Notes: generated by a model from the sequence alone, not told the origin. Shown: positions 15,981-61,587, counted from the whole stretch's first letter. The stretch: DNA of 63,404 bases, filler included, from Sluysia triapertura (GCA_046118255.1; 5 parts of 5 records of this genome joined end to end with filler, not necessarily neighbours in it), one strand, 5' to 3'. Numbers and translations: made by a program.

Positions 15981-17947
15981 TAAAACTTTCTGCATTATTT
16001 TCTATAGCCATACTTACAATAGAATTCGATTTTGGGATGGAGAATCTGGATGGTATTTTGCTACAACGTTTGTTCATGATAACTCTAACGGATTGATAAT
16101 AGATACATTTAAGACTTGTATTAATAAAACCTTAGCTTGTTATTACATTGACTTTTATTTTCAAAGTATTGATTTAAAACTTTTTAAGTGCCTTAAGCAC
16201 ATATCTTATAACAATAAATCAACGTATGATATAGATAAAGTAAAGACGATAAAATTTATTCGAAAAAAGAAAACCCCTACGCCCATAGTTGTTTATTATT
16301 AATTTATTTCAAGTGGAAAGTTAATTAATTATTAATTCACTCTATGTATCAAGTTAATCAAAGTTTAAGGAATTAAGCTTTTAAGTTACCGCTGTTAAGA
16401 ATTAACATTTTAGTATACGGTTGTCTTAAGCAAGATTTAGTAAGAAAAAGAAGTTTATACATTTAAGAATATTTTCTTCACGTAGAATTTTTTCTAGAAA
16501 TAAAACCCTGAAGCAACATCTTCTGCGTAACTAAATCTTTGACTTCAAGCGGACCCAAAAGATTATTTAAATCATATTTGCTTAAGTTTAAACAATTAAG
16601 AGAAAAATACCAGCACATCTTTAGCTTTTTTATATCTGAAAATATTGATTAAGTTATCGAATAATTATATAGTTGATTTATATTATATAACAATAATAGT
16701 AATAATAACAATAATAATCATAATGTGGTGACCAACCCAATAATTCAAACTTTTATAACATAATAAAACATCAAATTCACATTCAATAACGAAAATCATC
16801 AAATATCTACAAAAATTAATTCAAAATATTACAAACTTTATTATTACCTTCTCAAAGCATTTTTAATTCATAACTTTATAACATTAAAATTACATTCACG
16901 TTTAGACCATCAACGCACATTAAATTTTACTTAAAACATTTCAACCTATAATTCATAATATCAAATTACAATTACATTTAAAACCATCAATTTACAATTT
17001 GAAGTTCATTCAGAATATTATAATCCATAAGCTTACAACATCCAAACTTCACCTTCAGTCAAAACCATCAATCTATAATCTATAATTATCTAATAACATT
17101 AAAAGTACAATCACACCTTAAACTATCCAATTCTCATTTTAAAGGAATTCAAAACACTTTTAGTTCATAATTTTTAACATTTAATTGATGGCCAACCAAT
17201 TAATCTTAATAAACTCCAAATATATTAAAATCACATAATACGCATTTTTAAATCTATTTAAAACTAATCAAACATATCTAAAATCATATTCTTTAACAAC
17301 ATGTAACAATCTTGTAAAATTCATCACAACCGCTTTTATATCTTATTTCATTTCAGACCAACCAAAATAAACTTTTACTTTTCAAAATACTTCAAGCCTA
17401 CAATCTCATAACAAATAATACCATCAATTTACATTAAGCGATCCATCAAAAATATTTATTCGACACCTCATAACATCCAAACCACAATAACGTCTTAAGC
17501 CATTAAATTACATTAAATACATTAAAAAATCCAAAATATTTATCTCCAACAATTCAATCACAGTCACACTCGAAATTAATCAACAAATATCTCCAAAGTA
17601 AATTAAACACCATAAATCCACAAGTGGTACCATTAAATCTTAATATTCAAACATTACCATAACTCAAAAACACTAAGCAGCATTCAAAAAACATCGTAAA
17701 CATTTACACCTTAATACATCTTCAGCCAGAAACATCATTTCAGTTAAAACATTAGGTTTAATTATGCAAAGTTACTTAAAACCCCAAAAAAGTACTCAAG
17801 ATCTGTATGAAAAAGCGTCAGCACTTAAATCCATAAGGTTGCAAGTTCCTTTCGCTTTTATAATTTAGATATATTAAGAAATATTAAGAAAATCAAAGAA
17901 AGATCGTGTAAAAAATTGATATTTCTCAAGAATTTATGCATTTTTCA

Positions 17948-17949
<2 letters not shown>

Positions 17950-18018
<69 letters not shown>
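17950..18018. repeat. (AAT)n microsatellite inside a family A arm
   Basis: Perfect trinucleotide run. Confidence 0.95.
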
Positions 18019-18023
<5 letters not shown>

Positions 18024-18094
18024 CGTTATTATTATTATCACCATTTTTATATAATTAAATTAATTTAAATTAAAGCAGCTCAAAATCAACTGAG

Positions 18095-18290
18095 TTACCG
18101 CCATCATCAGTAATGACACTTTGCTTTACATTTACAATTCTGTGTCACTGTTGATTATGTTAGTCATCACATTTTGACGTCACTTTTCAAATCACAAAAA
18201 ATTAAACTTAACGATTATTGGCGGTCCAACCAAATCAGTAGTTGTGTTTAAACTCTCAAAATCATTTTTTGTTGGACAGCCAATCGTGAT
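18095..18290 (+). promoter_or_regulatory. Putative arm promoter: TCA-N-TGA palindromes plus ATTGG..CCAA(T) pairs
   Basis: GCCATCATCAGTAATGACAC, TGTCACTGTTGAT, ATTGGCGGTCCAA and TTGGACAGCCAAT; equivalents occur in other family A arms. Confidence 0.5.
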
Positions 18291-18425
18291 ACGGAAAATT
18301 TATCAACAAAAAATAACAATTGCTATTTCAACAAGCTTAAACGAGCGAATTTATATAAATCATCAATCTCATCAACAACTAGTTATTGTATAAAAATTAG
18401 ACTTACGAATTTAAAGAAAGAAATA

Positions 18426-19335
18426 ATGATGTTTAAGAAAGCGGTGACAGATTTTGATGTCGATTCTGTTATAGAGTATCCAAATAAATCTGAAGTTTGT
18501 CAAATATCACTTTTGTTCCAACTTGCACTAAATCAAGGAGTCAAAATCAAAATGGCAAGGTGCTTGTCATAATCCAAGATGTTACTTATCGACCCATTTC
18601 TTTACAGAAGCACGTTGCTCAACTTGAAGCTCAACTATTGACGAGAGATTTAAGAAGTGACAAAGAAATATTACAAACGTTACAAAACAGATTTTTGAAG
18701 CAGCGTAAAGTTACGAAATATTTCTCCGGCATCCATATTTTTAGTGAAAGTTTAACCGAAAATTTTCGAGATAGTGATAACTAAAATACACTTACAAGAA
18801 ATGGTCGTAATTTCGTCGTAAATTCCATCCTCGGCCTATAGAAACTTTAAATAATATTCTTGAGGTTTATAAAAATAATTCTGTGAAGTTAGATGAAGAA
18901 ATAGAAAGGATAGACCAAGAATCGGAGAACATTCGAATAAAAAACGTAATGCTCGATGATCGCAAACAGAAATACAATAATCACTACATCAATACTCACA
19001 AGGACCATGTTCTGCATACAAAATTTGTCCAACATCATGAATATTATAAATTAAGTGTCAAAAATGGCTATTATACCACCAATAAATATAGAGGTTGCAA
19101 TATCAAACGTAAATTCACTATTAAATATTCATGAAATGATACAAATGATAACAAAGAATGTATTTACAAAATTGAGTCTAATAATGTCAATGACCATAAA
19201 GTCAGAAGTAATAACTTTTATGCTAAATTTTGTTACAACAATGTTAATAATTGTAAAGGTACTGAGTTCAAATTTAATGACTATTTTATCCTAGGTGATG
19301 AAATTGAAGATGTTAAAGTAATAGCTTTCTTTTAT
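18426..19335 (+). pseudogene. Frameshifted orphan gene (cargo of the left arm)
   Basis: ATG at 18426 followed by consecutive overlapping ORFs 18497-18784, 18883-19134 and onward, on the same strand. Confidence 0.45.
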
Positions 19336-19773
19336 TTATTTGCCTTTATTGCAAACTTTAGTACCAATTGTTACATCAACTATCATCTTAATCGAAAACT
19401 TTACATGTATCCAGATATTGCTGTCTTGGTACAAGTTGTAACACGTCCTTGACCAACACCTTCCACATTTAATATCATTATTCATTAAAAAACGACTAGC
19501 TTCTTCATAGATCCTTCTAAACTCGCTTAAAACAACAGCAGAATACATCTCATAACTGGTCAAATCATCAGCCATTTTTGGTATTTCTTCTATCATCAAA
19601 ATAACATATGTTGTTCCATCTACAATTTCTTTATCTAGTAACTGCGTTAATTCTAACAAATTTTTTGTCATAACATGCTCGCTTTTCATTGTTATTTCCT
19701 CGACATTATCTACTAGCATTTTATCTAATGCAACTGGCCATAGATTGACTTTAAAAATATTTGAAATGATCAT
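19336..19773 (-). CDS. Orphan protein, 145 aa
   Basis: Open ORF with protein-like composition (CGRC motif); 3' end abuts the convergent gene. Confidence 0.55.
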   Translation of the reverse strand: MIISNIFKVNLWPVALDKMLVDNVEEITMKSEHVMTKNLLELTQLLDKEIVDGTTYVILMIEEIPKMADDLTSYEMYSAVVLSEFRRIYEEASRFLMNNDIKCGRCWSRTCYNLYQDSNIWIHVKFSIKMIVDVTIGTKVCNKGK

Positions 19774-20068
19774 ATAAACATTTGAGTTTCGCTCACTAAT
19801 GTAGTCTCTTTGGATGTTTATGAGCTGTTTTATATTTATTATCGAAGTTAAAATTAAAGTTCGATTTATTAAAAAGTGTGATATAATTGCAAATTTTAGT
19901 CTTAATTATTGTTACCGTATTTAAACTGAATTTATCAACTTTACATTGAATCATTGCTTTATTAAATCTATTACAAATATTTTTATACATAATGTAATTA
20001 AAATAACAATTAACACGTAAATAATAATTGATTTACACTGTAAAATTTAAACAGTAACAAATTCTGTT

Positions 20069-20615
20069 TTACGCTTGAACAAGAAAAATACAATCATCAT
20101 AATCTAAAAATAGTTGAAAAAGAGACTCGTAATTGTCAATGATAATTACACGAGTATTTGTAACAACTGGAATTGCATATCCGCCAAATGAAAGATTCAC
20201 TAGAACTCTTTGTTTTCTGATGTCACGAGCAATCCTGTAACATATTGTTATCAAAGAACGGTAGTTGTAACTCATTAAGTCCGTGAGCATACATGCATTG
20301 TTGACCATATTTAAAGCAGTGGCCAGTATCTGACGTACTGTATATACATTGTCAGGTTTTGTAATAACGTGAGTGACAGTTACGTTCCATATTTTTACTG
20401 TTTCTATGAACATACTGGCAATCATCTCCATTTGGAAAAAGTCCCGTGTATTTATCATATGAAGTACAATAAACATCATAATTGTAATTCAATGTATTAT
20501 CAATACTAGTTTCAAATGTTGTACTTTTCGATTCATTTAACAGCATGTTCCTCATTCGGTTCACTTGGTCTGACATAATCTGAGAACTATTTTTCAGGCT
20601 ATAATTTTTCTCCAT
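20069..20615 (-). pseudogene. Orphan gene with one frameshift (cargo of the right arm)
   Basis: Overlapping ORFs 20352-20615 and 20069-20479 directly inward of the right arm. Confidence 0.5.
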
Positions 20616-23600
20616 TATGATATGAGAAGTAGTAAAATTTATTAATTTAATTAAATCACTTTCTAAGACACAATTAATGTAATGATAGATGATATTGATG
20701 AAATATTCTAAACTTTAATTGTTTTACCTTTTATTCTCAATAGAGACAGTTTTTAATTATTACTTTCAGTGTTTATTTCTAAATATACTTTTTGAAAATT
20801 GTCTTTTACTATAATAATTTTGAAATAAAAACTTTTATTTTTACCTATTCAGCAATTTGTGTAACTGTTATTTTATAAAATTTTAATAACGAGTTTCAGA
20901 TTAAAATTAATTGTGACAGAAACAATATGCACATCTAATTGGCTGGCCAATTAGAGAGTAACTTATGCATTCCCGTGAAAATTTTAATTATCGAAATCTG
21001 TCAATAGTTGACAGTTAATAAATGAAATAATTTGTATAACTAAATCTGTCAATTATTGACAAAAAATATAATCCAAAATGACAATGAGATGATAAAAATA
21101 ATGGTGATGAAAATGATAATGATTCAATGTAGTAATGTGAAAAATAATAATTATTATTATAATGATAATAAAAATGGATTAAAATAATAATAAAATAATA
21201 ACAAAATAAATAATAAAATTATAAAGATATTAAAAACTCAAGTATTCTTTTCCTTCATAAATTTATCTTTCTTTAATATTAAAATTCTTTTCTTTTAATT
21301 CTTTTACTATTGTTTGAATAAAAAAGACAATATAAAGAGAATTCATGATGCAATATCAGAAATCTTATTGAAATAAACAAAATGTTTGTTGGAGGGAAAC
21401 GTAGTACATTGTTCTAAAATGAAAAAAGTATAAAAAGAAATTAATTAAGTTGGAGATGCTAAAAGAAATTCCATTTAAATTACTATTATGTTTTGAATTT
21501 TACTTACAAATTTTATGATTTGTGATGGAATAAAGGGTTAAGAAGTAAAGTTACAAGTTTTTGTGTATTATAATGTTGGCCACCACAGTTTCCACAAAAA
21601 TACTCACATTCAATGGATAATGAAGTTAAAACGTATGAAGACAATTTACGACCAATAATTGTTTTTAATTTTACATTCATCGATTTTTGTAAAACGATTT
21701 ATTTAATTATTATTAAGTCTTTATATTTTTAGGAGTTATCGCAGTGGCAGCATTAGTATTTAAAATAATAATAACTTTAAAAATGATAACAACACAATAA
21801 TAATAATAATAAATAGAATCTACAATATTAAATTTTATCTACCCATTACTTTGAGTAGATAAAATTTGACAAAAAATTAAAAACCAAAATTTAAAAAATA
21901 GCAATAAAAATAGTAATAATAATAACAATATACGTACAACCACTAATTGATTATGAAATTTATTTGTTTAATATTAATTCTATTAGCTCAGTTATCTGTT
22001 TAAAATTAAAAATTCGTTGAAAACAAAATTAATTGTCCAAAAACACTTAATGTTCAATTAGATTGCGACTTATCTAGAAAAACAAATAATGATCACTATA
22101 TTTTTCAAATATATTTTCGATAACTTATGCCTCGAAGTAGCATTTTATAAAACATGTCTTAAAAATAACTGATACTGCTTCTTGATATTAACAATGAGTT
22201 TACTATATCTCTTAAATACTCCTATGAATAATTTTTGCGTTTTGTGTTCCATCAATTATAGTAATTAAATGTAGATTATAAAATATGGTATCTGTGTCTG
22301 AAGCGCCGAATAAAACAATTATAATCTATATACATTTAGAGTATTTTTAAATAAATGGGGTGCTAAAAGTAACTACTGAATATTGAAGTTCAATATATTT
22401 AGAAATGCTCACAGTACAGCAGCAGAATTTTTATTAATTAAAATATGTTTTACTTAAATGCACTTATGATATTTGAATATGTTCTTTAAGATTATGAAGG
22501 TTCATTGGTGTTCAAATATCTCTGATTGAACAATCGATCTGTAATTTACTATTAAAACTGTGTACACATTGGCATTTAGAATGTCAGCATGTTCATTATG
22601 TTATGGTAGGCACGGATGTTATGCATTCACAAAGTGTTGTGCAAATATTGGGAATATATACGAAATTAAGGTTAAAATTATTTTTACATGGTATAAGTGT
22701 AATTTACATATTATTAACAATAGGTTATTCAAATTCTCGATTAAATCAGATGGAATCTTTGATTAATAGTCATTATTGGCCGTCCGCTCTTAACCATCAT
22801 AAAAATACGCACACACCGCACCAAAACTATTGAATCACCATAATTAATAATAAATAACTATCGTGTCTTAAATATGAGCTATATTTAAAAGAATTTGAAC
22901 TTGTCGTCCTATTCTGATATCTTATTGGAGTACGTCGTGATTAATATTATTTTCTAACAACTAATTATAACCAAAATTTATTATATTAAGAAAACTTATG
23001 TATTATATTTATAATATATTTTAGTTAGTATTGTATTTTATTTGTAGGCTTATTTACTTTATACATAATTTCATATTTACTTCATGTTTATTGAATTTTT
23101 TTATAATTTGATTACGCTCGTATCTACTGCAAAGTGCTAAAAAGCGCTTAAATTAAATTATTCACTGTAAATTTCTGAAACAGAAGGAGCTTTCCTTTTT
23201 TTAATATTTCATAATCTTCCAGTGATTTGGTATTATCTGGCAACTGATTGTATATTTTTGAGGCGTGTACGGTATCACTTAGCTTAATGTAAATTATTGT
23301 GTCAATGAAATATTTATGTTGGTTTCCAAATTTTTATTTTCTAAGAGATATTCGGGATTTCTGCAATCTGAGCAACTATAAATTATTGTCATGATTTTGA
23401 ATTCTATTCTGCTTTTATTAATAACCATAGTAATTTTTTATAAGATGTTACATGAAATCTTTTTTACTTGGAAAATTAGTCTTGATTATATATAAATTAA
23501 AATTAATTTTGAGTAATATCAATATTTGTAATAATATGAATATCTTATTACTTTTAAATTATGGGAAATAAACTTAAATTTCGAATTATCGAACATTAAA

Positions 23601-23972: not shown

Positions 23973-24129
23973 TTTTGGGATAAAAAGGCCTAAAGTGCCA
24001 TTTGGTAAAATTGACTACATTAAAATGAAATTGTTAGACGGGATTGATATCTCAGTGGTAGAGCATCGAACTGCGCAGCTAGAGGTCCCGGGTTCGATCC
24101 CCGGTCAGTCCATTTTATGAAGTCTAACA
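23973..24129 (+). mobile_element. tRNA-carrying short element, copy 2, inserted in a gypsy remnant
   Basis: (T)TTTGGGAT...TGTTAGAC-tRNA core-TTTTATGAAGTCTAACA; TSD not resolved. Confidence 0.8.
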
Positions 24130-24905
24130 TTTGGTGATGATCTTGTCTGTTATTAGTTTTATTCTGTAACAATCTACACTCCGGTTGAGTATATCCTTTT
24201 CTATTACAATAATAACATATAATATCATTCTTAAACTGAACAGTTTTTCTAAAATTAGAAAATTTACTCGGACGATAATTATTTTTATAGTTATTTCTCC
24301 AGTCATTATTAAAATTGACCATTATTAAATTTTCTTGGTGGTGTAATGGCTATTCTTCTTTGTGGTGTTAACGATCTTCTGCGTTCATTATTAAAATTTC
24401 TGTTACCACTACCAAATCGATCTCTACTACGGCGTTTATTGGAAAAATCATTTTTGGGTGTCTGAGTATAAATTAGGTGTTTTAATATCATGTCGCTCCA
24501 TTGATTCAATATCACAAACCATAAAACTTGCTTTATATGGAGTAATTGATAATCTAGCTTCCATTTTTGTGGCCTTTGAATATCTTCTAGAGTTGTGGCA
24601 TCAGAAATGAGCAATTCTGATCCAATCGGATCCTTACATCCATCCAAAAATTTTTGCACGATCAATTCATTTCTCTGGTCATGACTAAAATTGGGAAATG
24701 CTTTTAAAGCTAACCGTTTCAAATCAAAAATATATTTTGTAACGGATTCATTTGTTCCTTGTATTCTGTTTCTAAATTTCCTACCATTTGTAAATTGAGT
24801 ATCTTTTGTGACCAGCTGATTTTCAAATTCCATTCCATGCGTTTTTCTTCAGATATATTTAAGTAAGCATCTAAAGCTCTTCCGCGCAAGTGTAATGGAA
24901 ATCTC
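24130..24905 (-). mobile_element. Ty3/gypsy LTR-retrotransposon gag remnant
   Basis: Capsid-like Q..ESV..YI.DL..LA motif and degenerate zinc knuckle CYYCNRKGYTQPEC; frameshifted. Confidence 0.75.
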
Positions 24906-25932: not shown

Positions 25933-27000
25933 TGTGATGGCCAACTTTTTCATTCAAAATTAAAATTATTATTTTACATAAAATATCATATCTCCTAGCA
26001 TCTTACATTTTTCCTTTCAGATCCAGTAAAACCTTATTTTTATTTTTTTCAACAGTTTTAATTCACAACTTTGGAATATTAAACTTATATTTACAGTCAG
26101 ACAATAATGTACATTAAATTTCATTCAAAACATTTTAATCCACAATTTCATAATATTAGAATCACAATTCACATCTCAAATTATCAAATATACATTTAAC
26201 GTTTTAATCCAAAACATTTCAAGTTCACAATCCTTCAACACTCAATCATTAACATCAGCGAAAAACTTTGAAGCCATTTCAAAATCAAAATAACATTTCT
26301 TTAACTATGTATTATTTTCTTTAAACAATCATTTATCATCTCTTCCCACATTACATATCTTCGTAATCACTGAATAAAGTCATTTTAAAGAAAGAATTTT
26401 GCCTACAAGAATTTTATTAAGGTAATAGAAATAGAATTTATTTCAAAGAGAAAGTTAAATAAATAAAGTTTATGCATTTATAATTTTATATATTATCATT
26501 ATTATTATTATATTCACTTACTTTAATATAATTATTATTATTATGAAACCATCTTTATTATCTTTTATATCATTATTTATTATTATTATCATTATTGTTT
26601 GTTGTTAATACAGTCATTACTCGAATTAACAACTGTGACTGCTAACACATTTTATTTCATTGTCAGTCATCAGTGGACAGCTTAATTAAAGTTAATTCAA
26701 CATATTGTATTTACTGCCTACCGATGATAGACACTTATAGGAACAATACATTAGTTTCTACTCAATTTGTGGTTTGATTGGTCACCCAATCAAATTTTTG
26801 TTTTCTGGGTTTAAAAATATCTAATATTGCTAGATATAATGGACAATGATAGATACGCATTAATATAGAGCTTTACAGAATTTATTAGTTTAATAGTCAA
26901 CTATCAAAAAGAGATAGAGAAAAAATTTTTATTTTATCATTCAATTTAAAAATAACTTTTTAGATAAAAATTAAAAAATTTCGATTTTAGTGTGATGCCA
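25933..27000 (+). mobile_element. Family A arm
   Basis: TGTGATGGCCAAC start, C/A-rich ~78-bp degenerate repeats, TAAAGAAAGA, TAT-rich tract, and TTTGATTGGTCACCCAATCAAA palindrome near 26773; inner boundary approximate. Confidence 0.75.
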
Positions 27001-27019
27001 TCAATATTTCATTTATGCA

Positions 27020-27990
27020 ATGCAAAGAACTTAAAAGTAAAATGTAACAGAATAATGCAAGGCAATAATAGAATTGAATGTGACCAACAAATTGAATGGC
27101 TTGTTGAACGAAAATTAGATACATTTAATTTTAGAGAAATGCGACTATATCAATTTATTAAATAGATAAATAATAAAATAATTAGAAGTATTACAAAACC
27201 TAATAGATGAAAATAAAAGACTCATTATTATCGATGATATTCCATTAGATGATGAAGGTTATGATCATAATTATATGTTAATTAACTGTCAATCACTCAG
27301 AGGAAGATGATGGATCAATGTTATTAGTTGATAATCAAGTATTAATTGTAAATAGAAATTTTGCAAGAAAAATGATCAAGCTATTAATGATGAAACAACT
27401 GAATATACACACTGTCGGCAATAAATAATTTGACAACTTGTCTTAAAATATTGAAAACAAATTCATGCTCCAAAAGATCATCGTTTCATTTTACCAATAA
27501 AAATATAAACGAATTGAGTAAAATTAGTTTAATGTATTATCCAACAAATATCCCCCGTCACAATGATGAAAGTCACATCGATACAATCAATACTGCAGAA
27601 AATTATAACGCGTTTAGATCATTACAATGCCCATTCCAGTCCGACGAGTCGGGGGCATGTATTAAATTCGGATCCTCGTGTAAGTACTACTATTCTATTG
27701 ACCAAATTAGTTATATTGGAACTAATATATTTGTTTTCCACGAACATGTTCGGCGTATACAAAGTCTACTAAAAACCATCCTCGATTTCAGCAAAGCAAG
27801 TATTCCAATATGTAAAGAGAATTACAATGAACTCATCGGCGAGACTCAATCATTAGATGCTTAAACCACAGCAATTTTAAAGTAATCTTAATTTTTGATA
27901 TTCATTTAGTACTTAATATTTGTTTTTTGCATAATTCTAGGAGCCTGCAATCTATGAAACTGACGACGTGTTCCCGTGTAAGCATTCTGG
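27020..27990 (+). pseudogene. Degenerate orphan gene inward of the arm
   Basis: 144-aa ORF 27430-27864 with disrupted coding-like flanks. Confidence 0.4.
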
Positions 27991-28831
27991 ACAGTATTCT
28001 TAACAATTATATAATTCATAAATGTTACACTTTTGTATTTGATTATATATAAATATATTTCGATACCCTATCTTTTTATATTATAATTTTAAAGTCAAAT
28101 TTATATGATGAGATTAAATTTAAACTAATAAAGTTTTCAAATGTAATATTAGAACGATAATATAAAGATCCAGATTTTTCATACCATTAACTCAACTAAA
28201 CCAACCCTATAACATCCAACACATAATAATTTTGTTAATGTTGGATTTCAGTAGTAAGTAATAAGTATTAGAAATAATAATAAATTAAATAAATGATAAT
28301 ACTATTTCCTGAATATTTGCGGTTTTAGTTTGTTAATCAATTTTAATTGCTTATAATTTATATTAATTCTCATTTTAAAATGACTCTTGTCGATTATGAT
28401 GCTTTTAACTTTGAAATCACATCATTCTCTCTATTCAGCCCTATAGTCGAAAATAATGTTAATAATTTTCAATTACATACTGATTTTATTCAATCTCAAT
28501 TTAATATAATTCTAACTCTCACATTGGAATGATCTTCGTGTCCTTAAAATTTGGTGTTATATTCTTTTTATAGAATCTTATTTTAAAATGATAATTTATT
28601 TAATTTCAATTTAAAATCAGTTACTGTTATTAAATTTTGAATTTATACAAACTCTATTAAATCTCATTTAAATTGATACAAAGCATTATAATCTTGATAA
28701 TTATTTTAATTTTATTTGAAAATAATTTTCTTTTAAATAACTTTAAATTGAATGAGTTTTAAATTTGATTTGAAAACTTGAACATTTAATGAAGATTGAA
28801 ATTTAAAATATATATTAGAGACATCGAGATC

Positions 28832-28925
28832 TATTAACATTATTGTTGGTATATTAACATTATTGTTGGTATATTAACATTATTGTTGGTATATTAACAT
28901 TATTGTTGGTATATTAACATTATTG
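28832..28925. repeat. 20-bp minisatellite (TATTAACATTATTGTTGGTA) x4.7
   Basis: Exact tandem copies. Confidence 0.95.
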
Positions 28926-35452: not shown

Positions 35453-36323
35453 TGTAGTGGCCAACACTCATAATTCAAAATTAATTAAAATCTCATATTG
35501 GACATTCACAAATCAAAATTCACCCAAATTCAATTTTCAAAATAATCACACTTTTACTATCGAACTCCACCATCACAAACATCATAAAATAACATTCGAT
35601 ATTTATAACCTCATCAACTCACATATATCAACAATTTAACTAACATGTCAACCATCCATAGCATAAGAAACTTTGACATTTAACCTCAAATAATTTACAA
35701 CATTCATTAACCACATATTTCAACAAACAAATCACAATCACAATATAAAGTAAACAAACCTTAAATATACTAACATTATCAAACAACGCTAACAAGAACC
35801 TTAGAAATATAAATCATTTACAACAAAACCTTCAATCAACTACACCAACCTAAACCCACTTCACATACACATATTCATCGTTAATACTTACTAATAATAA
35901 CTTATTTTATAATCGCCATTCAAAATTAAAATAACTTCAACCTTTCATTAAGCATTTCACATCATTCTATTCAATACACAAATCTTGTTTTCAAACTATA
36001 AACCTTTAATAAGTTTCAATAAATTATTCTAACATTCTTCATTTCACTTACAACCCAAACCATTACATCTTTTAAAAACAAATTTAAGATAACTTTAAAG
36101 GTTTCATTATCATACTGTGAGGCAACAACTACAAATGATACATTATGCACTTACTTAGTGTTGTTCCTTCACAATATGACATCATTTCGTTCTTTTTATT
36201 TTTCATCTATATGTAAGAAAATGTTTTAAGAATATAAAGAAAAGATTATGTTAAAGGTTTTTTAAAGATTTATGCGAATTTTATTTAGTAATAATAATAA
36301 TAGCAATGTTATTGTTGTTGCTC

Positions 36324-47099: not shown

Positions 47100-48218
47100 T
47101 CATATGTTAAGTAATACGTCGATAGTTGAATTACTTTTTTATGAACGGTTTGATAATGCAAATAACGATTCGTAAATAGTTCGCTCGACTCATTATCATC
47201 GTCTTGGTTATGCAGATTATGATAATCAAGTACTAAGCTGTTGATTATTCGCAATTTATTAAAATGATTGGAGATTAAAATTAAAAATGTGGATAATAAT
47301 AATAAATGTTATTATTATTATTAATAGAGACCTTAACATAAACTTACTTTTATAATCTTATATAATTCTTAATATATAAGTTATAAAAGCAATTGAATCT
47401 TACATACTTATGGATTTGGAGTGTTGACGCTTTTTCATATACATGTTAAATGCTGTTCTAAGGTGGTTTTTAAATATATGCTTGGTGTTTTGAGGTATGA
47501 TTGTGGTTATGATCCTGCATGATAATGTGTCGAAAGTTTACAATGAATTTTTAGATACTAACGAGCGTTTTTAACTAAAGATGAGTATTGAAAGTTATAA
47601 TTTAATTGTTTTGAAATAACATGAATGCTTAGAATGAATGATAAATATACATTGGAGTTTTGAATAAGATTAATGTTTAGTTGTTAGGATTGTGACTGAA
47701 AACTGTGTTGAAAAGAGTGTAGTTTAGTGTATTAAAAGGAGATAAGTTATAATCTAGCTTTTAATATGTTCTAAGGCGATCATAGAATGTTAAAAATATG
47801 ATTTATTTTCTTGATATATTTGAGTAATATTGTCTCCTATGCTGTTTGGGATTAAATGACCATGGATCATGAATTTAGAATGTTTAGGTTGCTTTGAAGT
47901 GATGAATAAAATATTTTGATAAATTTTTTAATATAAACTGATGGTTTTGAATGTCATTGTGATTTGTTTGTTATGAGATTGTGGATATGAATTAATTTTA
48001 ACGGGTGAAAATTTTTAGTGGATATAAAGGAGATAAATATGGGTATGTTAAAATGTTAGAGAATGTGGTTTTATATAGAATATGTTGGTTTAATTTGGTA
48101 TTGTTTTATGTTGGTTATTAGACTTAAATTGTAGCTTTTGAGGGTGTACGTGATTTAGTTACATTAAAGAGAACAGATTTTGATAAAATTTATTAATAGT
48201 TAAAGGTTGGCCATCACA
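47100..48218 (-). mobile_element. Family A arm
   Basis: Ends GGTTGGCCATCACA; reverse complement contains TATGAAAAAGCGTCA.CAC..AAATCCATAAG, shared with 17806-17838. Confidence 0.75.
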
Positions 48219-48772
48219 AAATAATCACATACACCAATTTTGATTCAGTAAATTTTTAATATGTTTGTGAATCAATAAAATTATATAATACAAAATTTAA
48301 TCAATAACAATCATACGAAATGTTCAATAAAATAATCGCATAAACAATTTATTACATACACCAATTTTGAATAAAGTATTAATATGTTTGTACTTTGTAC
48401 CAATAAAATTTAACAATTATCAATTTTCCAACGTAAATACAAATTGGATGAATAACAATAGATCCAGTTTCAAAATAGAAATAATTATCGTAATAATAAT
48501 GTTGCGTCTTTGAAATCAACGGTAACAATAAACCAATACTAATTTAATTTACTTAAATAAAATCTCAAATGATTTCAATATTCACTAAATCTAGTATATT
48601 TATTCAACCCAAAAAGTACGTTCTTAATTTAAATTAATAAAAATAAGTCAATAATATAATAATTACAAAATCAGATACAAGTCCTTATTGTAATTCTTTG
48701 CTTGAACAATAATGAAAAATAACTAAATTTCAAAGTTAACAATAAGATTTTTGGCAATATTAAGACCACAAC

Positions 48773-49063
48773 TGTAGGGAACCACGAACCACACCTCTTC
48801 ATATCAAAATTACAAACACATTTCATCACACATGAACATTTCTTACATAAATAAAACGATTACTTGAGTCATTTAAAAACACGTGTATATAGTATTGTTA
48901 TCATAACTTTTATCATAATAACCTCATATAATCGTAACTCCATCGACATTATTACATTAAACTAAGTAGTAATTCAATTTAAATTTCATTTTTTATTGTC
49001 ATTATTATAACTTTTCTTATTGTCAATTATTCTACCTTACCTTTTCTCATTATTCTTTTCTGT
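48773..49063 (+). mobile_element. Family B arm
   Basis: TGTAGGGAACC start, C/A-rich, alignable to the reverse complement of 54700-55009. Confidence 0.65.
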
Positions 49064-50827
49064 ATGCGTATTTATTCTTTTTATATTTTATTACAGTTTT
49101 ATTGTCTTCTCATGCTAGTTACAGATATTTGTATTAGATGCGTTAAAGAACAAAGTCCAAAAACTATGCGATTTGATAGACTTATGAAAAAATCGATTAT
49201 GATTAATGACAACTGTAACAAACGGAAGATAGCAAATAAAATTGATAATTCATTTACATATAAATTAAACAGAAGACAAGATATTATGCATTATTTTCGA
49301 AACCGTCTTTTGGATGATATTCAAACATTTGATTTAAATGACCAAAGCCTAGTTATAGAGTGCTGTAATTATTTATCTTTTATGATATGATCATAGGAGT
49401 AGTTGAGTAATATAAAATAATATTATTTTTAAAAGACGCAATAACTACTTTGGATAGTGAAGTTCAAAATTTAAAGGCCCATTGTAAAACTTTGATTTAT
49501 GATAATAGAACATTAAAAGATAAATTAAAAGAATTAGAAAAAATTTTGGAAAGCAAAAAAGCTGGTTTAATAGCATTAGATGAAAATATTTTATATTATA
49601 CTTTTATGATTGATTTATTTAAATTAGATGGTCAAAAGCAAATATCTGATGTCGAATTTGGAATTTTGAATCAATGTATTTATGAAAAATTTTGGTTAAA
49701 AACACTTCTATTATTCCTTTCTTGAATCACTTTATCAATCTGATGTCAATTGACTTTATAAATGAAATAATTGATTTTACAAATAAAGTTTTGCTGAAAC
49801 TGTCATCAGAATTGGACAATAAAGATATTAATTATCAAAGAACAATTTTTTTAATGTTAGTTTCAAAAACTTGTTTAGATCACAATTTATATAAAGATGC
49901 AATATATTTTGTAACGAAGCTCTCAACTATACTAGAAAGATTATTTGTGATGAAGCAAAATGTTTATTGAGTTTAGGTTTAATACATTTGAAATCAAATA
50001 ATACCGATCATTCACTTGATGCATTTAACGAAGCAATGGAATTATTAAATAGAAATTGTTCAAATGAAATTTATCAAAAACTCATTTTAGCTGAACACTA
50101 TTTTCAATTAGGTCATCTTTTATCAAATACTTCTTTGAAGGAAAACAGTGTAAAGTATTTTGAAATTGGAGTTACAGTTTGTACTCATGCTACACAAGAT
50201 GAAGAAAAATTAACCAATGCACTGATAGAATTGGCTATGTTATGTAATGAAAATGATTTTATTAATGATGCAGTATTTGTTTGCGAAAAATTAATGAAAT
50301 TCTTTCATTTTAAATTATATAATAAAGAAACAGAAAGCTATAAATTGAAAACACTTTATCATATAGCTTTGAGTGCAGAACAAAATGTGGGAAATTCAAA
50401 TAAATTGCTAAATATCGAAGTACCAAGTGTCGTTGAATTACCTAAATCACTTGAAAAAACTATTATTGAATTAATTATTATATTTTGTAAAAGTGAATTT
50501 TTTATTGCAGCTGAAGTTTTATGTAAGTGGCTTAAAAAAGCGAAAGATGAAAATGAGGTTAAGAAATTATCAAATACAAATATCACTATTCGTCTTTCTA
50601 ATCCTAGTGCTAATTTGAAAAACAAAATCGATCAAACAAAACCAGAAATATTAACAGACAAAATGATTTTGTTTAAACCATTAACTAAAAAGCATTCAAA
50701 GAATATTAAGCAATTACCAATAAAATTTACGAGTTTGTTTAAATCTAATAAATATTTAAATATATCATCACATAGTGATAAATATATTTATTTTAAGAAA
50801 CTGTATAAAAATGTTAAAATAAAATAA
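49064..50827 (+). pseudogene. Highly divergent kinesin light chain-like gene (coiled coil + TPR-like), two apparent frameshifts
   Basis: LDSEVQNLKAHCKTLIYDNRTLKDKL...LIALDENILYYTFMIDLFKLD matches the KLC heptad ([26 protein letters not shown]...LEEEKKHLEFMNQLKKYD); intron 49365-49435 restores the frame; downstream helical TPR-like ORFs. Confidence 0.65.
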
Positions 50828-51815: not shown

Positions 51816-51970
51816 TGTTAGACTTCATAAAATGGACTGACCGGGGATCGAACCCGGGACCTCTCGCTGCGTAGTTCGATGCTCTACCGCTGAGCTCTCA
51901 GCCCCATCTAACAATTTTAGATTATTATAGTTCATTATACCAAATGGCACTTTAGGCCTGCATCCCAACA
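51816..51970 (-). mobile_element. tRNA-carrying short element, copy 4 (complete, 155 bp)
   Basis: TGTTAGAC...ATCCCAACA flanked by a CTTA 4-bp TSD. Confidence 0.9.
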
Positions 51971-52301: not shown

Positions 52302-53418
52302 AAAGTAAAATTAATTTAATATAAAATTCCAAAACTGAGTAATAATAAAATTAATGTAAAACCAAAATAAATATATATGTTAAAATTTAAATAAGTTTCA
52401 ATTATGTCAAAGTCGACGATCAATAAATATATCAATAATTATTGTTGTAATTATAGTGTGCGTTGATGTTGCGTTGTGCATTGACATTTCTAATAATTTT
52501 TGGTGGATAGTGTCAAGCAAAAGAAAATACTGAATATATTAGTTCGTTTTAGATGCTTGCCTAATGCCACTTATTGCTTAGATTTACAAATATTATTATT
52601 ACTTTTGTTTATTTCACTTTTAATTTTTAATTAAATTTTAGTTACTTAAAATAATCAGTAATTAAATTAGTATTTAATCATTATTTAATTAAAAATATAA
52701 AAAATACTACTAGGGCTGTCACCGTATCTCATGAAATTATAAAAGAAAAATATAAATAAATAATAATAAAGTAGTTAAAGATAAAAAATATTAATAGTTA
52801 AAACTTATATAAAATTATTTACGGAATAACCAGTGGAAATCATTATTTAAACGATTTGTTCAAATCCAATTACCTAATAAAACTGTCAAAAACGTTGGTC
52901 AATGACAATGCTACCAGATAGTCTAATCTCTCATTCTATATTAACAATAATGTATACTAATTTTATGTTTTTAATTCTTATATTGTTGTTTAATAAAAAC
53001 CCGTTATTTTTCGTTGTTTATCTGTCTTTAAAGTTAATTCTTGTTTTCAAAGGCATTGAGCCTTTTTGTTTCATAATTTAATGTTTAAAAGTTTAATTTG
53101 TATTAATAATATAAAATTTAAGTTATATGCAAAAATAAATTAAATTTCTAATAGTTTGAAGTCCTCCAAAATAACATATATAAATTTAATTTTAGATTGT
53201 AAAACGAATCAAAATAACTAATTTTTAAGTTATCTGTGTCGACGTGATTCGTAACACTTCATCACTAAGAATACTAGTAAAATTCTATTGTTGTTTTGTC
53301 ATGAGCACACATTTTTCAACAAATTATCAAATTACACTATGGAGGGCGATAAACAATTTAATTTATTTGAGTGATCATTATTTTTGTAATTTTTTATTAA
53401 AAAAGTTTAAAACACCAA

Positions 53419-54078
53419 TTAAATAAAACAATTTAACTTTAATTTAATAACTTTTAACAAAATAGGCTTAAGGCCTGTCAAAATTAACAAATAGAAAACA
53501 GTAACAAAGTTTGATATTTTATTAGAAATGAAACATAACAAGTGCAGAACGGATATAAACGTACTGAATAATAAAACAGCTCTATCCGTAAATGAACATG
53601 ATCGTTTTGGATTAGTAAAACTAGTCGTATAACACCAAAATTGTTGCTGAACGCTATAATGTTTGTAATCAAATGATGAAACATCGCATTTATTTTTCGG
53701 TGGAATTTCTACACCAAAGACACGACAAAAATTTTTCGACCAAATTAAATCACTTTGAGAAACATCTATATCATCTCTAGTTAACAATTTCTTCGCGTTA
53801 ATCCAATCCATACATTTTGTAATAATTGTTAAACACTTTCGATAATAATCAATGGTAGTTGTTAAATGAAACTGATTTTCTTTCATATAAATTTTAATTT
53901 CTTTAGATACTACTTCAATATCTGATAATAATTTCATATTAGCTTTAATTTTACTAAAATTCCAATTAGCTATATATATTAGTTCATCATATGATGGTTT
54001 TAATTTCAAATAATAACGCGATAAGTAATAAATCCAGATTTTTTCATTACTTGATACTTCTACATTAACTGTTGCCAT
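53419..54078 (-). CDS. Orphan protein (219-aa ORF, hydrophobic C-terminus); likely last exon of the family B arm cargo
   Basis: Long ORF inward of arm 55009; coding-like disrupted sequence upstream to ~54560. Confidence 0.5.
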   Translation of the reverse strand: MATVNVEVSSNEKIWIYYLSRYYLKLKPSYDELIYIANWNFSKIKANMKLLSDIEVVSKEIKIYMKENQFHLTTTIDYYRKCLTIITKCMDWINAKKLLTRDDIDVSQSDLIWSKNFCRVFGVEIPPKNKCDVSSFDYKHYSVQQQFWCYTTSFTNPKRSCSFTDRAVLLFSTFISVLHLLCFISNKISNFVTVFYLLILTGLKPILLKVIKLKLNCFI

Positions 54079-54559
54079 TAATGTTTAATATTGATTTTTT
54101 TATTATCAAATTTTTATTAATTATTATAATTTTTTTATTATTTCTTTACATAATTTCGACAAGAAATTATGGGATAACAAAGGAGGACAGGCAAAGTACT
54201 GATATAATAGTCTGTACATACTTGATTTGTAGTAAATTGTGTTATGACATTCTACATGAATAGTATTTCTGTAGATTGTGATGTTAATTGTTTTGTCGTG
54301 TTGAAACTGAGACTGCTCAATACCTCATTCTTCGATTCCGATATCGACTCATTTTTAACATCATTATCAGGAAGTATATGTTTTAAACTTCATTGTAGAT
54401 GGTAAATTGAATAGATTATTTGACTATAAGCTATTAGAAACATAATCTTTCAAATCTTCTTTCTCAGTAACCAATAACGTAATATTATCCATAGAAAGTA
54501 TCGGCATATATCTTTTGCGACCATAATATTCGAATAATTGACTTTCCAGTTGAAACGTT

Positions 54560-55009
54560 GGAGTTATTAAAAGAACAAATTTTATAACAGATATTAAATG
54601 TAAACTTTATAGATTAACACATGGATGAATATGTAAGAAAAGTGGAAAAAACGAAAGAATAAAAAGACAGGTTAATAACAAGAATTAAAAAATAATAATA
54701 ACAATAACGTAGTTATTATGTTTATTAATACTGGCATTGTTGGTGTTGATATGAAATTTTATTATGAGATTTATTATAAAAGTTATTATCCGATAATCAT
54801 ATATTACTACAATAATGACAATAATTATTATACATGTATATTGTTTAATACGATTTGAATTGTAATAATAATAACTGTAGTTCATGATAATTATGTGCAA
54901 TGATTATGTTTGTTTTTCGAATGAGGTTAGTAATTTGTTTAATAATCTGTGTACATGTGAAATGTTTTAATGTGATGAAGTGTGATGAATTTTGTGCGAT
55001 TTCCCTACA
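54560..55009 (-). mobile_element. Family B arm
   Basis: Ends GCGATTTCCCTACA (reverse complement TGTAGGGAAATCGC); homologous to the 48773 arm. Confidence 0.65.
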
Positions 55010-56683: not shown

Positions 56684-57982
56684 TTATAACAGTTTTATAG
56701 TGGTGGTGTTAGATTTTAAAATTTTCATTATAAATTCATTTAAATTTACTAGCATTATTTTCATTCTTATGTTAGGACAATTTCTTATTATCTGATATTC
56801 TTTACAAATTGTTAATTTATTGTTGTTACGTTCGTGCTTAAGGCACTTCAAATTCTTTATACTAAGCTGTTGAGGGCGATAGAAATAATAAAAAGTTACA
56901 GTAATTTTATTAACATAAAATTTGAATACATCTACAAATGTTTTCATACAAAATAAGGTTTTGTTAAAAGGAAGAACCTTATGTGGATAAGATCTTCTTC
57001 CGTGCAAGTAAACTCCGTTACACTGTTTTCCGTACGTACCACAACAATCCGACCATAATACCACACGATAGACTGCTATTGCTACATCTTCTCCAACATC
57101 ACATAACTCTTTACTCTGATATCTTTTAAAGTTATTCAGTTTATCTAATAATAAAAAGTGAAGTAAACAATGATCAATTGTCGGCAATAATGCGACACGA
57201 TAAGCTACTACTAATACGTCTTTTACAACATTACATAAACCTTTACTATCATATCTTTTATAATTATTCAGTTCATCTAATAATAAAAAGTGAAGCAAAC
57301 AATGATCAAGTGTCGGCGATAATGCGACACGATAAACTACTATTACTAAGTCTCCTCGATTCTGGACATCGTCGATTACACGGACTAATTCTGAAACAGT
57401 TTTAATTCGAAAAATCATGTACAGAAAAACTACACCAGCTGAGTAAATGTCGATTATAAAATTGTATGATGAACTGTTACCACGAGAACTTGCAACTTCA
57501 TGAGCCATGTGGACATCGGTACCAACACCTCTCGACATCTTGCCAAGTGATTGGTTTAAATTGATGCATTCTGTAACCAAACCAAAATCTCCTATTTTCA
57601 ATTTAACTTTTTCAATTACATCGTTATCGTATGAAAAGACAATTCGTTTTGTATTGGAACTCCTTGATTTTTTAAATTTATCATCGAAACATCGAACTGG
57701 TTTAAATTGATCCATGTTGTAACGAGTTAATTTCTTATTTTCTGAAACCGTAAGTTGATTCATTTCAGTCAAATTGTTAACAGAAGAATGATTAAATTCA
57801 TGATTTTGAGACTGTGTCTTGGAAATTAAATTTGGATTTCTTGTTGCTAATGAAATGGTACCAACTTTAACACTTCCAGAATTAGTATTAATTTCATTTG
57901 TAAATTCCATGAATTTCGAATAACGTTCAACACAAAAATGATCACAAAAGTTGACGGATAACAAGCGATTAAAAATTTTCAA
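56684..57982 (-). CDS. Pseudokinase: eIF2-alpha-kinase-like C-lobe, 44-aa tandem repeats and a Polo-box-like segment
   Basis: KIGDFGLVT, GVGT..MAHE, YN..IDIYSAGVVFLYM and TVSEL motifs; no Gly-loop, VAIK or HRD; 132-bp internal duplication. Confidence 0.7.
   Translation of the reverse strand: MKIFNRLLSVNFCDHFCVERYSKFMEFTNEINTNSGSVKVGTISLATRNPNLISKTQSQNHEFNHSSVNNLTEMNQLTVSENKKLTRYNMDQFKPVRCFDDKFKKSRSSNTKRIVFSYDNDVIEKVKLKIGDFGLVTECINLNQSLGKMSRGVGTDVHMAHEVASSRGNSSSYNFIIDIYSAGVVFLYMIFRIKTVSELVRVIDDVQNRGDLVIVVYRVALSPTLDHCLLHFLLLDELNNYKRYDSKGLCNVVKDVLVVAYRVALLPTIDHCLLHFLLLDKLNNFKRYQSKELCDVGEDVAIAVYRVVLWSDCCGTYGKQCNGVYLHGRRSYPHKVLPFNKTLFCMKTFVDVFKFYVNKITVTFYYFYRPQQLSIKNLKCLKHERNNNKLTICKEYQIIRNCPNIRMKIMLVNLNEFIMKILKSNTTTIKLL
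57040..57352 (-). repeat. 132-bp in-frame tandem repeat (~2.3 copies)
   Basis: YRVAL.PT.DHCLLHFLLLD.LNN.KRY repeated. Confidence 0.9.
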
Positions 57983-57999
57983 TTTGAAAACTCAAAGTC

Positions 58000-58311
58000 A
58001 GGTGAATTGATATCGAGGAATGAATTTTTAAAATTTTTTGTTATTGAAACAAATTGAAAATAATAATAAAAATAATAAAGTAATAAAAATTAATAATAGT
58101 AAAATAAAATAATAATAAAATAAAATAATAATAAAATAAAATAATAATAATAATAAAATCAATAATAGGCGTTTATGATTTGTCGGGGATAAAGTATGAT
58201 AATGCAGATATTGCAGATGTGTTTTATTTCGATGTAATTTTTATTTGTGATGAGGTTTATGTGGTTGATGGTGAATGAGATGTATGTTATATATTGAAGC
58301 GTGACACCACA
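58000..58311 (-). mobile_element. Family B-related arm
   Basis: Ends GCGTGACACCACA (reverse complement TGTGGTGTCACGC); skewed arm shares TTATCATA(A)CTTT(T)ATC with the 48773 arm; AAT/AAAAT tract precedes the kinase ORF. Confidence 0.55.
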
Positions 58312-59199
58312 TTAACATTGGAATTGAACGTATACATAATTAAACTGTTAAACTTCTACTTAACTTTTTAAATTAAACATGTTTTTGAATAAATTAAATT
58401 TCAAAATTTTTTATTAGTATTTTTATATTACAATTATAAAACTATAGCTTATTCATTTGTACTATTTGTTATTAATAATTTATCGAAAATCCAATTATAA
58501 TCAATAATATTATTTTATAGCTAATTCAAATCAATATTAAATGATCTTCAATTAATAATTGTTTTCTTTTCCAGAATAATAAGCTGGTATTTATAATATG
58601 CTTTTATTAAATGTTACTGTTCTTACACACTATTGTTCGCTGATATTATTCTGTGTCCTGTAATTTTTTCAATACCATTCTATAATAATTTCTATAATAA
58701 ATTCTAGAGTAGTAATAATAATTAAATGTGCTCACAATAGTTTTGTAATTTGTGGTCGATTTTATTTTATGTTATTGCTCTGATCTTATAATCCATTTAC
58801 ATTCGCTTTGATTTGCTAACTGATGTTTATTTTCTATTTATATTATACCAGCGACAGATACTTTTGTGGATCAATCTGTGGATTTTATTGTGTTGAATTA
58901 AGGTGATTTAATTTATTGTACACAAAAATTATTAAATTGAAAGCATTTGTTATTAAAATATGAACTTGAAAATTACGATTAAGTTTCATTGTTATCTTCA
59001 TGAAATAATAAATTTTAGACTTGTTACAATAAAATAATAAGTGATACAAAAAAATAATTTTATTTATACTAATTAAACTAAAAGTTTTTGAATTGATACT
59101 GATTATCTCCTGAATAGGTCTTTTACTTCGTAGTACACATTTCACTAAATAAATAAAAGGATAGAGTTAATATTTTAAAAATATTTTAAATTTACTTTT

Positions 59200-60310
59200 A
59201 TGTTATCTGGTACCACCCAATCGAAATGTAGATTTGTGTAATTGCTTGTGGACACTTCGAGCTCTTTTATGACGGGATATTGTATTGAAGAAGAAGTTAT
59301 CTATTCTGTTTAGATGTATGATGACAAGTGTTGAGTTACTTCCGAGCTCTTCAAGCTCATCAGCGGAATGGTTATATTTGCATCTTGCAACATATCGTGA
59401 ACATTCTCCAGTTTGTATGGTTATATAGCGCCGTCTTATAATGTTTATTGAAAACTGCTAAATTGTACAACTTTGTGCTTAGAGGTCTATTACTAACATA
59501 GAGTGACTTTGAATGACTAAATTCTGAATTCTTGTTTAGAGTTTTGGATCGTGAAGCATGGGTTTTACTTGTCATGACGAATAAATCAATATCTATTATT
59601 AAGTATGATGATAGTAATAGATTAATAAGCATCAATATAATTTGATTCTCATTATTCGTTATAAATCTGTCACAATTTTCATAACGCTGTATTAATTTAT
59701 ACTTGATCATATAAGATTCATTCAATGTCGAATTCATTTTTACATGAAAGATATAAGTCGATATAAACTTTTAAAGCTAAAGTTTTGTTCGGGTATGAAA
59801 TTGACACATACTTCATCCTCTTTATCATTTGAAGAATTTTTATTAATCGCCAACGCTGTGCGAAACCCATATGTTTCGTATGATTAATTGTTTAACATCT
59901 TAAGACATAAGAATACATCAACTCCAAACTTTGATTCATTATATTTTATTAACTTGTATAGCTAAATTGTAAGTTATCCTCTATGTGAGAGTCGGACACA
60001 TTAACTCCGCTGACATATTTGAATGGCACATATAATGACGAATTCTCGGGCAAACTAAACCTATTTTTTAAGGCTTCATTTTTACGAACAATAAAAGCAT
60101 CTTTTGGTTGAACGAAATCTCAATTTGAATAATTGATCTTAAACATTTTGATAAGTAACATGAACTTGATCTTAATTTTATGTAGTTATAAGAGAATAAA
60201 CTTTCTTTTGGATTATATAGAGATCTGTACCAGTTTGGACAAAGTGTCAGATCATCACTATTTATCGCAACAAAATCGTACGATATATCATCTTCTATTT
60301 TCAACATCAC
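59200..60310 (-). pseudogene. Degenerate orphan gene inward of arm 61587
   Basis: ORFs 60068-60310 and 59372-59737 on the same strand, with disrupted coding-like sequence between. Confidence 0.4.
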
Positions 60311-60319
60311 TTAACAAAT

Positions 60320-61587
60320 TTATTAATTTCTGTTTTTTCTATAAGAAGTTATTATAAATGAATTTTTTTGTAATTGATATACTAAATTAATTTAATTTGA
60401 TTTACCTAGTCACCTTTCAAATTCTAAATTGTCTTTTTTGACTATGATTACTTTTATCTTCAATATAAAATTAAATTTTTTACCAAAGAGTTAACTATTT
60501 ATGAATAGTTAAATATTTATGAATCGTAAAATTAATTTGTTTTGCACAAACCGTCTATAATAATGTGATACATTAAAATCTAATGAAAATGTTTATAAAA
60601 CGAATAAGCAAAATTGATTGGATGACAAAAATAAACAGTAATTTTTCTTTCGCATACCGTACTGTAAAATAAATAATGAGGATTAAGTCTGTCAAATTTG
60701 GTGTCCAATTAGATGAAGAGAGACATTTAATTGGACGTCCAATCAATTGAAGTAATCGACGCATAGTAACTATCACCAGTTGACAGTTTGATACAATATA
60801 ATAATTTAGTTTAATGCATTGTCAACTAGAGAAGATCAGCTAATTACATTACTCAGTAAAAAGATAATAATGTATAATAACAATAATAGTAATGAATAAT
60901 AATTAATAATAATAATTTAAATAAAAACATAAGTATTTTCTTAATACGCGATCTTTCTGTTATTGAAACTTTTATTGATATAAATAAATTTATTTAGTTT
61001 AAATATAAATGAATAAAATGTTTTAAGTAAAATTTAACGTTCATGAATGGTTTTGAATGGTATATTTGCTGTTGGCGTTTTGAAATGTGACTAGTTTTAG
61101 TTGATCTGACAAAAATGAAATATATCAACGGTTTTGATACATTCTCCAAGGTAGTTATACATTGTTAACATTGATTGTACTGTTATGGAACTATGAGTAA
61201 AATGTTTTTGATGAATTTTTTAAATGTCTGTTATAAATCTGTAAGTGAATGTGATCTTCATGTTATTAGGTTATAAAATAGGAATGTTTTGAAAAGGTTA
61301 GAATAAGGTTTTAGTGGAAGTAGAGAAAATAAAATATGAAACAGTTTAGATGTAAGAATAGTTAAAATGTAATGGGATGTGATTTTATGTGAAGTGTGTT
61401 GAATTAAGTTTGTAATATTTTGAATTATCTTTTAAGTAAATCTTTGATGATTTTAGGTATTGAATGTGAATTTGATGTTATGAAATTTTATGTTTAGAAG
61501 TATTAAGAATTATGAAATGTTTCGAATAGTGATTGTGTTGTGTTATGATAAAATAAAATTTGTAAAAGTAATAGGTTGGCCATCACA
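60320..61587 (-). mobile_element. Family A arm
   Basis: Ends GGTTGGCCATCACA; reverse complement AACATCAAATTCACATTCAATA...AAAATCATCAAA shared with 16767-16803; AATTGGACGTCCAAT at ~60729. Confidence 0.8.

Follow-up and report, generated by a model that had tools for sequence, protein, structure and literature searches.

What would account for seven arms that share an abrupt 5′ end, that each point into a coding region, and that lie scattered over separate contigs of one genome? The question is raised by a stretch of DNA from Sluysia triapertura (GCA_046118255.1), 63,404 nucleotides long with its filler and here called the window. It consists of five AT-rich contigs (~24% GC) joined by N-spacers, the first contig having one extra gap. 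The best reading of the seven units is that they are gene-capturing transposable elements of a decayed sort, with a mobiliser that is not seen in the window. Their common end, the homology and polarity of their arms, the origin of a recurrent cargo piece in the gene for Unkempt, the presence of pieces of other host genes and the breaks in the coding regions are directly demonstrated.

The shared end, the arm and its polarity

Seven ends on four of the five contigs, the starting point of a preliminary description of this DNA, are indeed where that description put them. The end motif, TGTRRTGRCCAAC, is exact at 16724 (+), 25933 (+), 35453 (+), 21587 (−), 48218 (−) and 61587 (−), and has one mismatch at 44638 (−). 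With up to two mismatches it is matched 15 times in the window, for a shuffle mean of 4.37 and with none of 100 shuffles reaching 15, an enrichment that is partly post hoc because the motif was derived from the same seven sites. All seven units start with 5′-TG, and the termini TGTGG, TGTGA and TGTAG fit TGTNR. The homology ends abruptly at the TGT, and the flanks outside it are unrelated in all seven units; the 4 bp directly outside are ATAA, ATAA, TAGA, AAAC, TTAG, ATTT and AATT.

Inwards of the end comes an arm with 4–8% G and 17–22% C. Equally C-rich and G-poor 200-nt tiles number 12 of 617, all of them inside arms, and between them they cover six of the seven arms. Five arms (16724, 25933, 44638, 48218 and 61587) are connected by blastn blocks of 65–86%. 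A leave-one-out arm profile places all seven arms above all 100 shuffles, the support being weak for 35453 and 21587 (2.9 and 7.1 bits). Duplication appears to lengthen the arms, since inside the 16724 arm the end is found again at 17185–17196, where a second arm unit begins (profile 17186–17476, E 6e-9). There is no clean period by autocorrelation, though off-diagonal alignment occurs. [That the arm alone might be a small element, with TTTATGCA as its end, was ruled out by eye, there being no target site duplication (TSD) after it.]

The order proposed earlier, from arm to AT tract to palindromic motifs (six of seven) to inward coding region (seven of seven), is borne out. The AAGAAAG block that was said to close each arm stands in part: it is exact in four of the seven and present as a variant in the other three. 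The AT tract that follows it leads to ACTGTCA/TGACAG sites and inverted CCAAT pairs, which we take to be predicted NF-Y and TALE-homeodomain sites, and a Pol II promoter is likely here. This promoter-like module is found in six of the seven units, and in a leave-one-out comparison five of the six exceed all shuffles, the module of 35453 not being recovered.

The longest arm is that of 16724, where the TGTGGTGACCAAC end and arm extend over 16724–17902 (+; by motif and profile) to the AAGAAAG block at 17896 and are followed at 17950–18290 (+) by an AAT tract and a module with TGACGTCA and two TTGG-n-CCAA palindromes. At 20905–21587 (−) a TGTGGTGGCCAAC end opens a short arm, followed by AAGAAAG (21273), a TAT tract and a module of ACTGTCA/TGACAG with ATTGG-CCAAT. 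The end is TGTGATGGCCAAC in three units: at 25933–26818 (+), with arm, AAGAAAG (26388), tract and promoter-like module; at 60689–61587 (−), with arm, tract, ACTGTCA and two CCAAT palindromes; and at 47340–48218 (−), with an arm and no promoter module. A TGTAGTGGCCAAC end, arm, tract and promoter-like module occupy 35453–36658 (+), while at 43904–44638 (−) the TGTGGTGGTCAAC end, which carries the one mismatch, is followed by arm, AAGAAAG (44213), tract and an inverted CCAAT pair.

Most of the arms are unpaired, and they have a polarity. In fixed 1-kb segments stop-free coverage is greater on the inward strand in seven of seven cases (one-sided sign test 1/128), so within the window the suspected inward bias of the open reading frames (ORFs) holds; segments picked after the ORFs were known give the same result.

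Five further, degenerate TGT starts, at 6679 (−), 31875 (−), 48773 (+), 55009 (−) and 58311 (−), had been overlooked. Four of the five run via a short C-rich arm into inward ORFs, the arm profile recovered none of the five, and it is uncertain whether they belong to the family. The same uncertainty attaches to the four regions that they open. At 5899–6679 (−) a degenerate TGTAGTGG arm leads to a PKC-epsilon-like N-terminal C2 piece from its Met (E 6e-5), and at 56684–58311 (−) a degenerate TGTGGTG arm and TAT tract precede a 408-codon ORF with a GCN2/PERK-like kinase piece (E 3e-5). The two others are arms of a second type with TGTAGGGAA, homologous to each other (0 of 200 shuffles): one at 48773–50827 (+) with broken ORFs and a weak TPR match, the other at 53419–55009 (−), also with broken ORFs.

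An Unkempt-derived finger and other host gene pieces

Unkempt is a host RNA-binding protein and translational regulator. A CCCH finger of its type is common to the cargos of 21587, 25933, 48218 and 61587, four of the seven, and recurs at a fifth locus, a chimera with PKA-RI whose arm is lost at a contig start; the earlier statement that the cargo proteins show no similarity to one another was wrong. The 21587 copy (20069–20612, −; one stop and one frameshift) is colinear with Unkempt fingers 2–3 (PDB 5ELH; E 9e-15 and 2e-5) and scores 38.3 bits with PF25427, for which the cut-off is 31.1. Two other copies score 19.5 and 16.9 bits, under that cut-off, and the fingers of 48218 and 61587 are assigned by pairwise match only. 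Finger 3 is what the cargos of 25933, 48218 and 61587 have in common (pairwise E 0.001–0.007), and its Cx9-Cx6-Cx3-H spacing is recognisable in the copies other than 21587. The broken ORF of 25933 (26835–27864, +) has its finger at the C-terminal end (~27628–27705; E 9e-4, below cut-off), with a helix, as does that of 61587 (59206–60310, −); in the broken ORF of 48218 (46180–47299, −) the finger is degenerate (~46630–46707). Unlike Unkempt itself, the cargo has only a fragment of the protein, is multicopy, has lost ligand residues in several copies and has a new C-terminal part. With a profile built from the copies, Unkempt comes first among five matches. For the pairwise comparison of the fingers, an opposite-strand control gave no such motif match, only a common non-coding block and one weak compositional match. 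Judged by these similarities, the Unkempt piece in these cargos is of host origin.

In the six pairwise comparisons of four fingers, identity is 82, 87 and 46 of 156 at codon positions 1, 2 and 3, counts that are anchored on the finger motif and so biased upward at positions 1 and 2. Third positions are near saturation and the first two are conserved. With the caveat that the region was chosen by its motif, this suggests that the copies diverged as proteins. Every one of the seven cargos is split by stops or frameshifts, a feature missed in the preliminary description.

Pieces of three other host genes, CCT-alpha, PKA-RI and PKC-epsilon, are uninterrupted and 3′-truncated. The CCT-alpha piece is the second ORF behind 21587 (19336–19773, −; E 6e-15), with 145 stop-free codons corresponding to human residues 28–180 and ~53 of 137 residues (~39%), counted by eye, identical to the PDB chain. 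In a neutral simulation with 400 runs each, its frame survived without a stop in 5 at 70% self-identity and in 3 at 60%, the required divergence being assumed rather than taken from the host's true CCT-alpha.

The PKA-RI piece is at the start of contig 4, in a locus (39172–40547, +) whose 5′ end is cut off there. Colinearity extends over 915 nt, with the D/D domain at one end and SDYF at the other; the best named matches of the piece are from trematodes (68%, versus 62–67% for most others), a weak indication that the host is a flatworm. Without an intron it passes the human boundaries c.177, 349, 440, 502, 550, 708, 769 and 891, then breaks after the first base of codon G325, the position of the human splice boundary c.973/974. 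Intron loss is judged here against human PRKAR1A only, with the splice positions taken from variant names in one source (PMC11240189). After 40085 sequence of Unkempt finger 2/3 follows in frame, in a locus that is frameshifted, and 46 residues align with the 21587 copy without a gap; the ten residues adjoining the junction are not significant alone (135 of 2000 shuffles). Host genes here do have introns, since MAU2 in the window has a short GT-AG one near 33896–33970 (read by eye). [The MAU2 exons, at 33530–34588 (−), are very divergent, 26–34% to the best matches.] The host pieces thus look mRNA-derived.

The remaining cargos are broken coding regions of no known family: behind arm 16724 at 18426–19449 (+); behind 35453 several ORFs at 36777–38452 (+), the longest stop-free stretch being 225 codons; and behind 44638 a low-complexity ORF at 42533–43774 (−), for which a protein search gave none from 197 candidates. 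A single-sequence fold of 37641–38228 has a pLDDT of 36. In the Atlas the 25933 ORF gives only CCCH leads, all below 0.9, and 18811–19131 gives none. The one match of the 25933 ORF among 1.84 billion representatives is repeat-rich and was judged spurious.

The type of element

Tentatively, the units are taken to be decayed non-autonomous copies of a gene-capturing retroelement family of the long terminal repeat (LTR) type, with the Unkempt piece as common cargo. This reading is favoured because of the TG end, the spliced-looking pieces from several parent genes and the mostly unpaired, polar arms. The TG end points to an integrase, and TGTNR ends are shared by Gypsy LTRs according to Bao et al. 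(2010, PMC2836005). Partial, mostly 3′-truncated chimeras of several parents are given as the signature of LTR-mediated retroposition by Tan et al. (2016, PMC5131818), and host pieces that are partial, chimeric and, by comparison with human PRKAR1A, intron-free are what the window contains. The units behave like products of LTR-mediated gene capture, though their identity as LTR retrotransposons is putative. Gypsy-like gag remnants do occur in the window, assigned by eye and lacking a significant Pfam match.

Under the retroelement reading the arm and promoter would be a U3-like region, and a Gypsy-type integrase acting in trans would have inserted the unit. An early member may have captured Unkempt fingers 2–3, its descendants spreading with the protein kept under selection. 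The PKA-RI and CCT-alpha pieces, and probably those of PKC-epsilon and an eIF2-alpha kinase, would have entered from spliced mRNA by template switching of reverse transcriptase, one capture perhaps proceeding via a spliced chimera of host and element. The remnants would mostly be single units, as solo LTRs would be, and would have decayed later.

A number of points weigh against this. ORFs inside an LTR, downstream of its promoter, would be unusual. No second LTR copy was found, the same-strand neighbours 48218 and 44638 being just 67% alike over 202 bp; an absent twin is expected for solo LTRs, but LTR-mediated retrocopies should be flanked by both (PMC5131818). The 15 nt before each of the seven ends contain 6–11 purines with no G-rich run, hence no polypurine tract; a primer-binding site (PBS), searched by eye only, was not seen at the units; no gag-pol is linked to any arm in the window; and among the units no conserved 3′ end was found. 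The Gypsy-like remnant that does have a PBS-like site, at 2973, has upstream sequence unlike the arms. The TSDs of 4 bp that were to be looked for are at chance level, an exact ACA followed by the unit's own 4-mer occurring in 3 of 7 zones and by a foreign 4-mer in 12 of 40. [The exact candidates, at 21796, 38720 (TTAACA/TAGA) and 58751 (CGACCACA/AATT), were dropped as evidence for lack of enrichment over foreign 4-mers.] Three of the seven cargos (16724, 35453 and 44638) match nothing in Pfam and protein searches, the PKA-RI chimera has no visible arm, its 5′ end being cut by the contig start, and some of the cargo breaks could be assembly errors. That no transposase was recognised is confirmed: 77 frame scans of the window, some overlapping, gave none, of the rve type or other, and no reverse transcriptase. 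Rfam gave two tRNA-like matches only and no ribozyme at gathering score, so a Penelope/Terminon-like reading is not favoured.

LTR-mediated retrocopies, or pseudo-LTR retrotransposons (Tan et al. 2016, PMC5131818, with maize Bs1 cited there), are among the closest known systems. They have in common with the units the TG end, partial 3′-truncated uninterrupted pieces, chimeras of several parent genes and non-autonomous multiplication. There, however, the retrocopies lie between two LTRs with remnants of element ORFs, whereas here there is one arm per unit, and the captured Unkempt appears to be a long-selected core of the family. The giant Gypsy elements of planarians called Burro (PMC6431247), probably from the same phylum, are likewise LTR elements loaded with host-derived domains. 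Those domains (AIR1, Smc, MATH, BIR, ankyrin) are in a gag-pol polyprotein, unlike here, where none is seen, and the term CCCH has no occurrence in the accessible part of the Burro review. No description of an Unkempt-carrying element was found in full-text literature searches, which covered neither Repbase and Dfam nor most subscription journals.

A more doubtful explanation is that the units are Ginger2-like cut-and-paste elements with very short terminal inverted repeats (TIRs), with subterminal arms that bear the promoter at one end or at both, and with Pack-TIR-like cargo, the mRNA pieces having come by separate retroposition into the elements. The TGTNR termini and few-kb size are as in Ginger2/Tdd and Ginger1, and the AT-rich flanks as in Ginger2 (Bao et al. 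2010, PMC2836005). Ends also face each other: 16724 (+) and 21587 (−), 4,864 bp apart, agree at 12 of 13 end bases, and their ORFs converge; opposite 25933 (+) lies the degenerate end 31875 (−), with flanks ATAA and GTAA; and 44638 (−) faces the armless PKA–Unkempt ORF. But Ginger TIRs are 40–270 bp in the same source, and the facing arms 16724 and 21587 have ~13 bp in common with no blastn alignment, while for 25933, 48218 and 61587 a complete inverted partner is absent from 9–13 kb of contig (35453 and 44638 being too close to contig ends for the comparison). On these two counts the Ginger and TIR framing of the preliminary description fails. The flanks of the first facing pair differ (ATAA and GTTT), neither they nor ATAA/GTAA correspond to the Ginger TSD (4-bp CCGG/CCGT or RTATAY), and the transposase is lacking in the frame scans. 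The facing pair can also be read, on weak grounds, as nested units, the + frame that ends near 19310 resuming with 47 open codons after 21587. [These codons, 21588–21729 (+), are in phase with the 16724 ORF once the 21587 unit (19311–21587) is removed, which hints that the latter is nested in the 16724 unit, without a TSD.]

Pack-MULEs and animal Pack-TIRs, such as Ssk-FB4 (Tan et al. 2021, PMC8277862), are also multicopy non-autonomous units with host pieces beside long terminal arms. Their DNA is captured between long TIRs, with a median of 224 bp, and Ssk-FB4 has a TSD of 9–10 bp. The units here have neither long paired TIRs nor a MULE-type 9–10 bp TSD; their pieces look spliced and are 0.2–0.9 kb, and their arms are mostly unpaired. 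Since the host pieces look mRNA-derived, reverse transcription is more likely than the Pack-MULE kind of DNA capture. What stands of the earlier proposal is a non-autonomous gene-carrying family, which integrase-type TG ends and an inward promoter fit; the cargo is not unrelated each time and has the Unkempt finger as its core.

It is unlikely that the units are instead a core duplicon or a rapidly evolving multigene family of the host, in which an Unkempt-derived gene was duplicated with its promoter and the TG arm is an older element fixed in that promoter. The signal of purifying selection in the finger and the ordinary look of the CCAAT/TGACAG promoter would fit this, as would the failure to demonstrate a mobilising enzyme or TSD. 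A near-perfect direct duplication of ~60 bp is found on both sides of the 48218 unit (46146–46210, at the end of its cargo, and 48270–48335, ~50 bp outside its TGT). However, the similarity halts sharply at the TGT with unrelated flanks in seven of seven units, one type of arm and promoter serves unrelated cargos, and all seven cargos are broken.

That the units are segments integrated from a DNA virus, polydnavirus-like or other, with host-derived genes, the alternative raised at the outset, is highly improbable: several same-strand ORFs have no known family and an unnamed viral cluster at 0.86 heads the Atlas rows of the 25933 ORF (a lead only), but Pfam gave no viral protein family in the frames of the window, none of the 36 loci picked up by motif scans (3 viral, 33 metagenome) has a G-poor arm or promoter beyond the motif, and the sole representative-library match is the spurious repeat-rich protein.

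Other elements in the window and the meaning of the family

Several other repeats accompany the units. A 155-bp element starts with TGTTAG, ends with CCCAACA, has a tRNA-like sequence (Rfam RF00005) on its other strand and looks like a tRNA-bearing solo LTR or terminal-repeat retrotransposon in miniature rather than a plain short interspersed element. Copies are at 51816–51970 (+), 24129 to ~23975 (−), 41459–41909 (+, with an insert of ~310 bp) and ~6820–6964 (+, degenerate), and two of them have 4-bp flanking duplications (CTTA; TTTT). The gag-like remnants, two in number, related and assigned to Gypsy by eye, are at 24023–24905 (−), ending in a CCHC-like knuckle, and at ~3200–3484 (+), where the PBS-like TGGTGCTCC at 2973 comes after a CTTAACA end. 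A non-coding block, 69–77% identical at 4560–4900 (−), 40690–40856 (+) and 53207–53339 (+), sits downstream of the PKC-epsilon piece as well as of the PKA-RI piece; it either belongs to the family as a 3′ module or is a repeat in its own right. A degenerate satellite of ~85-bp units is on two contigs (8090–8288 and 28331–28733), and there is a 20-bp tandem array at 28833–28920.

At 14793–15980 (+) a TAT tract is followed by frames of 130 and 250 codons of no known family and without a TGT arm; the region downstream weakly resembles the end part of the kinase ORF of 58311 (E 0.004). An exon with a PapD-like flagellar domain is at 61730–62173 (+) and a Ser/Thr kinase exon at 3602–3937 (−).

Together the seven units and the PKA chimera take up 17,701 of the 62,744 called bases of the window, on four contigs. 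If the window is typical, the family would rank as a dominant repeat of this animal and as a major supplier of its new chimeric genes. A bolder form of the retroelement reading, which we consider improbable, is that the 2–3 kb units are giant solo LTRs acting as portable expression cassettes, with a gene inside the LTR and downstream of its promoter; the Unkempt module would be a selected accessory gene that steers host translation or escapes silencing, and new host mRNA pieces would be tried in the same slot. If true, such cassettes could in number fill a quarter of the genome. A mobile family that keeps Unkempt under selection at the protein level would offer a testable instance of a host gene domesticated by an element, and not the reverse.

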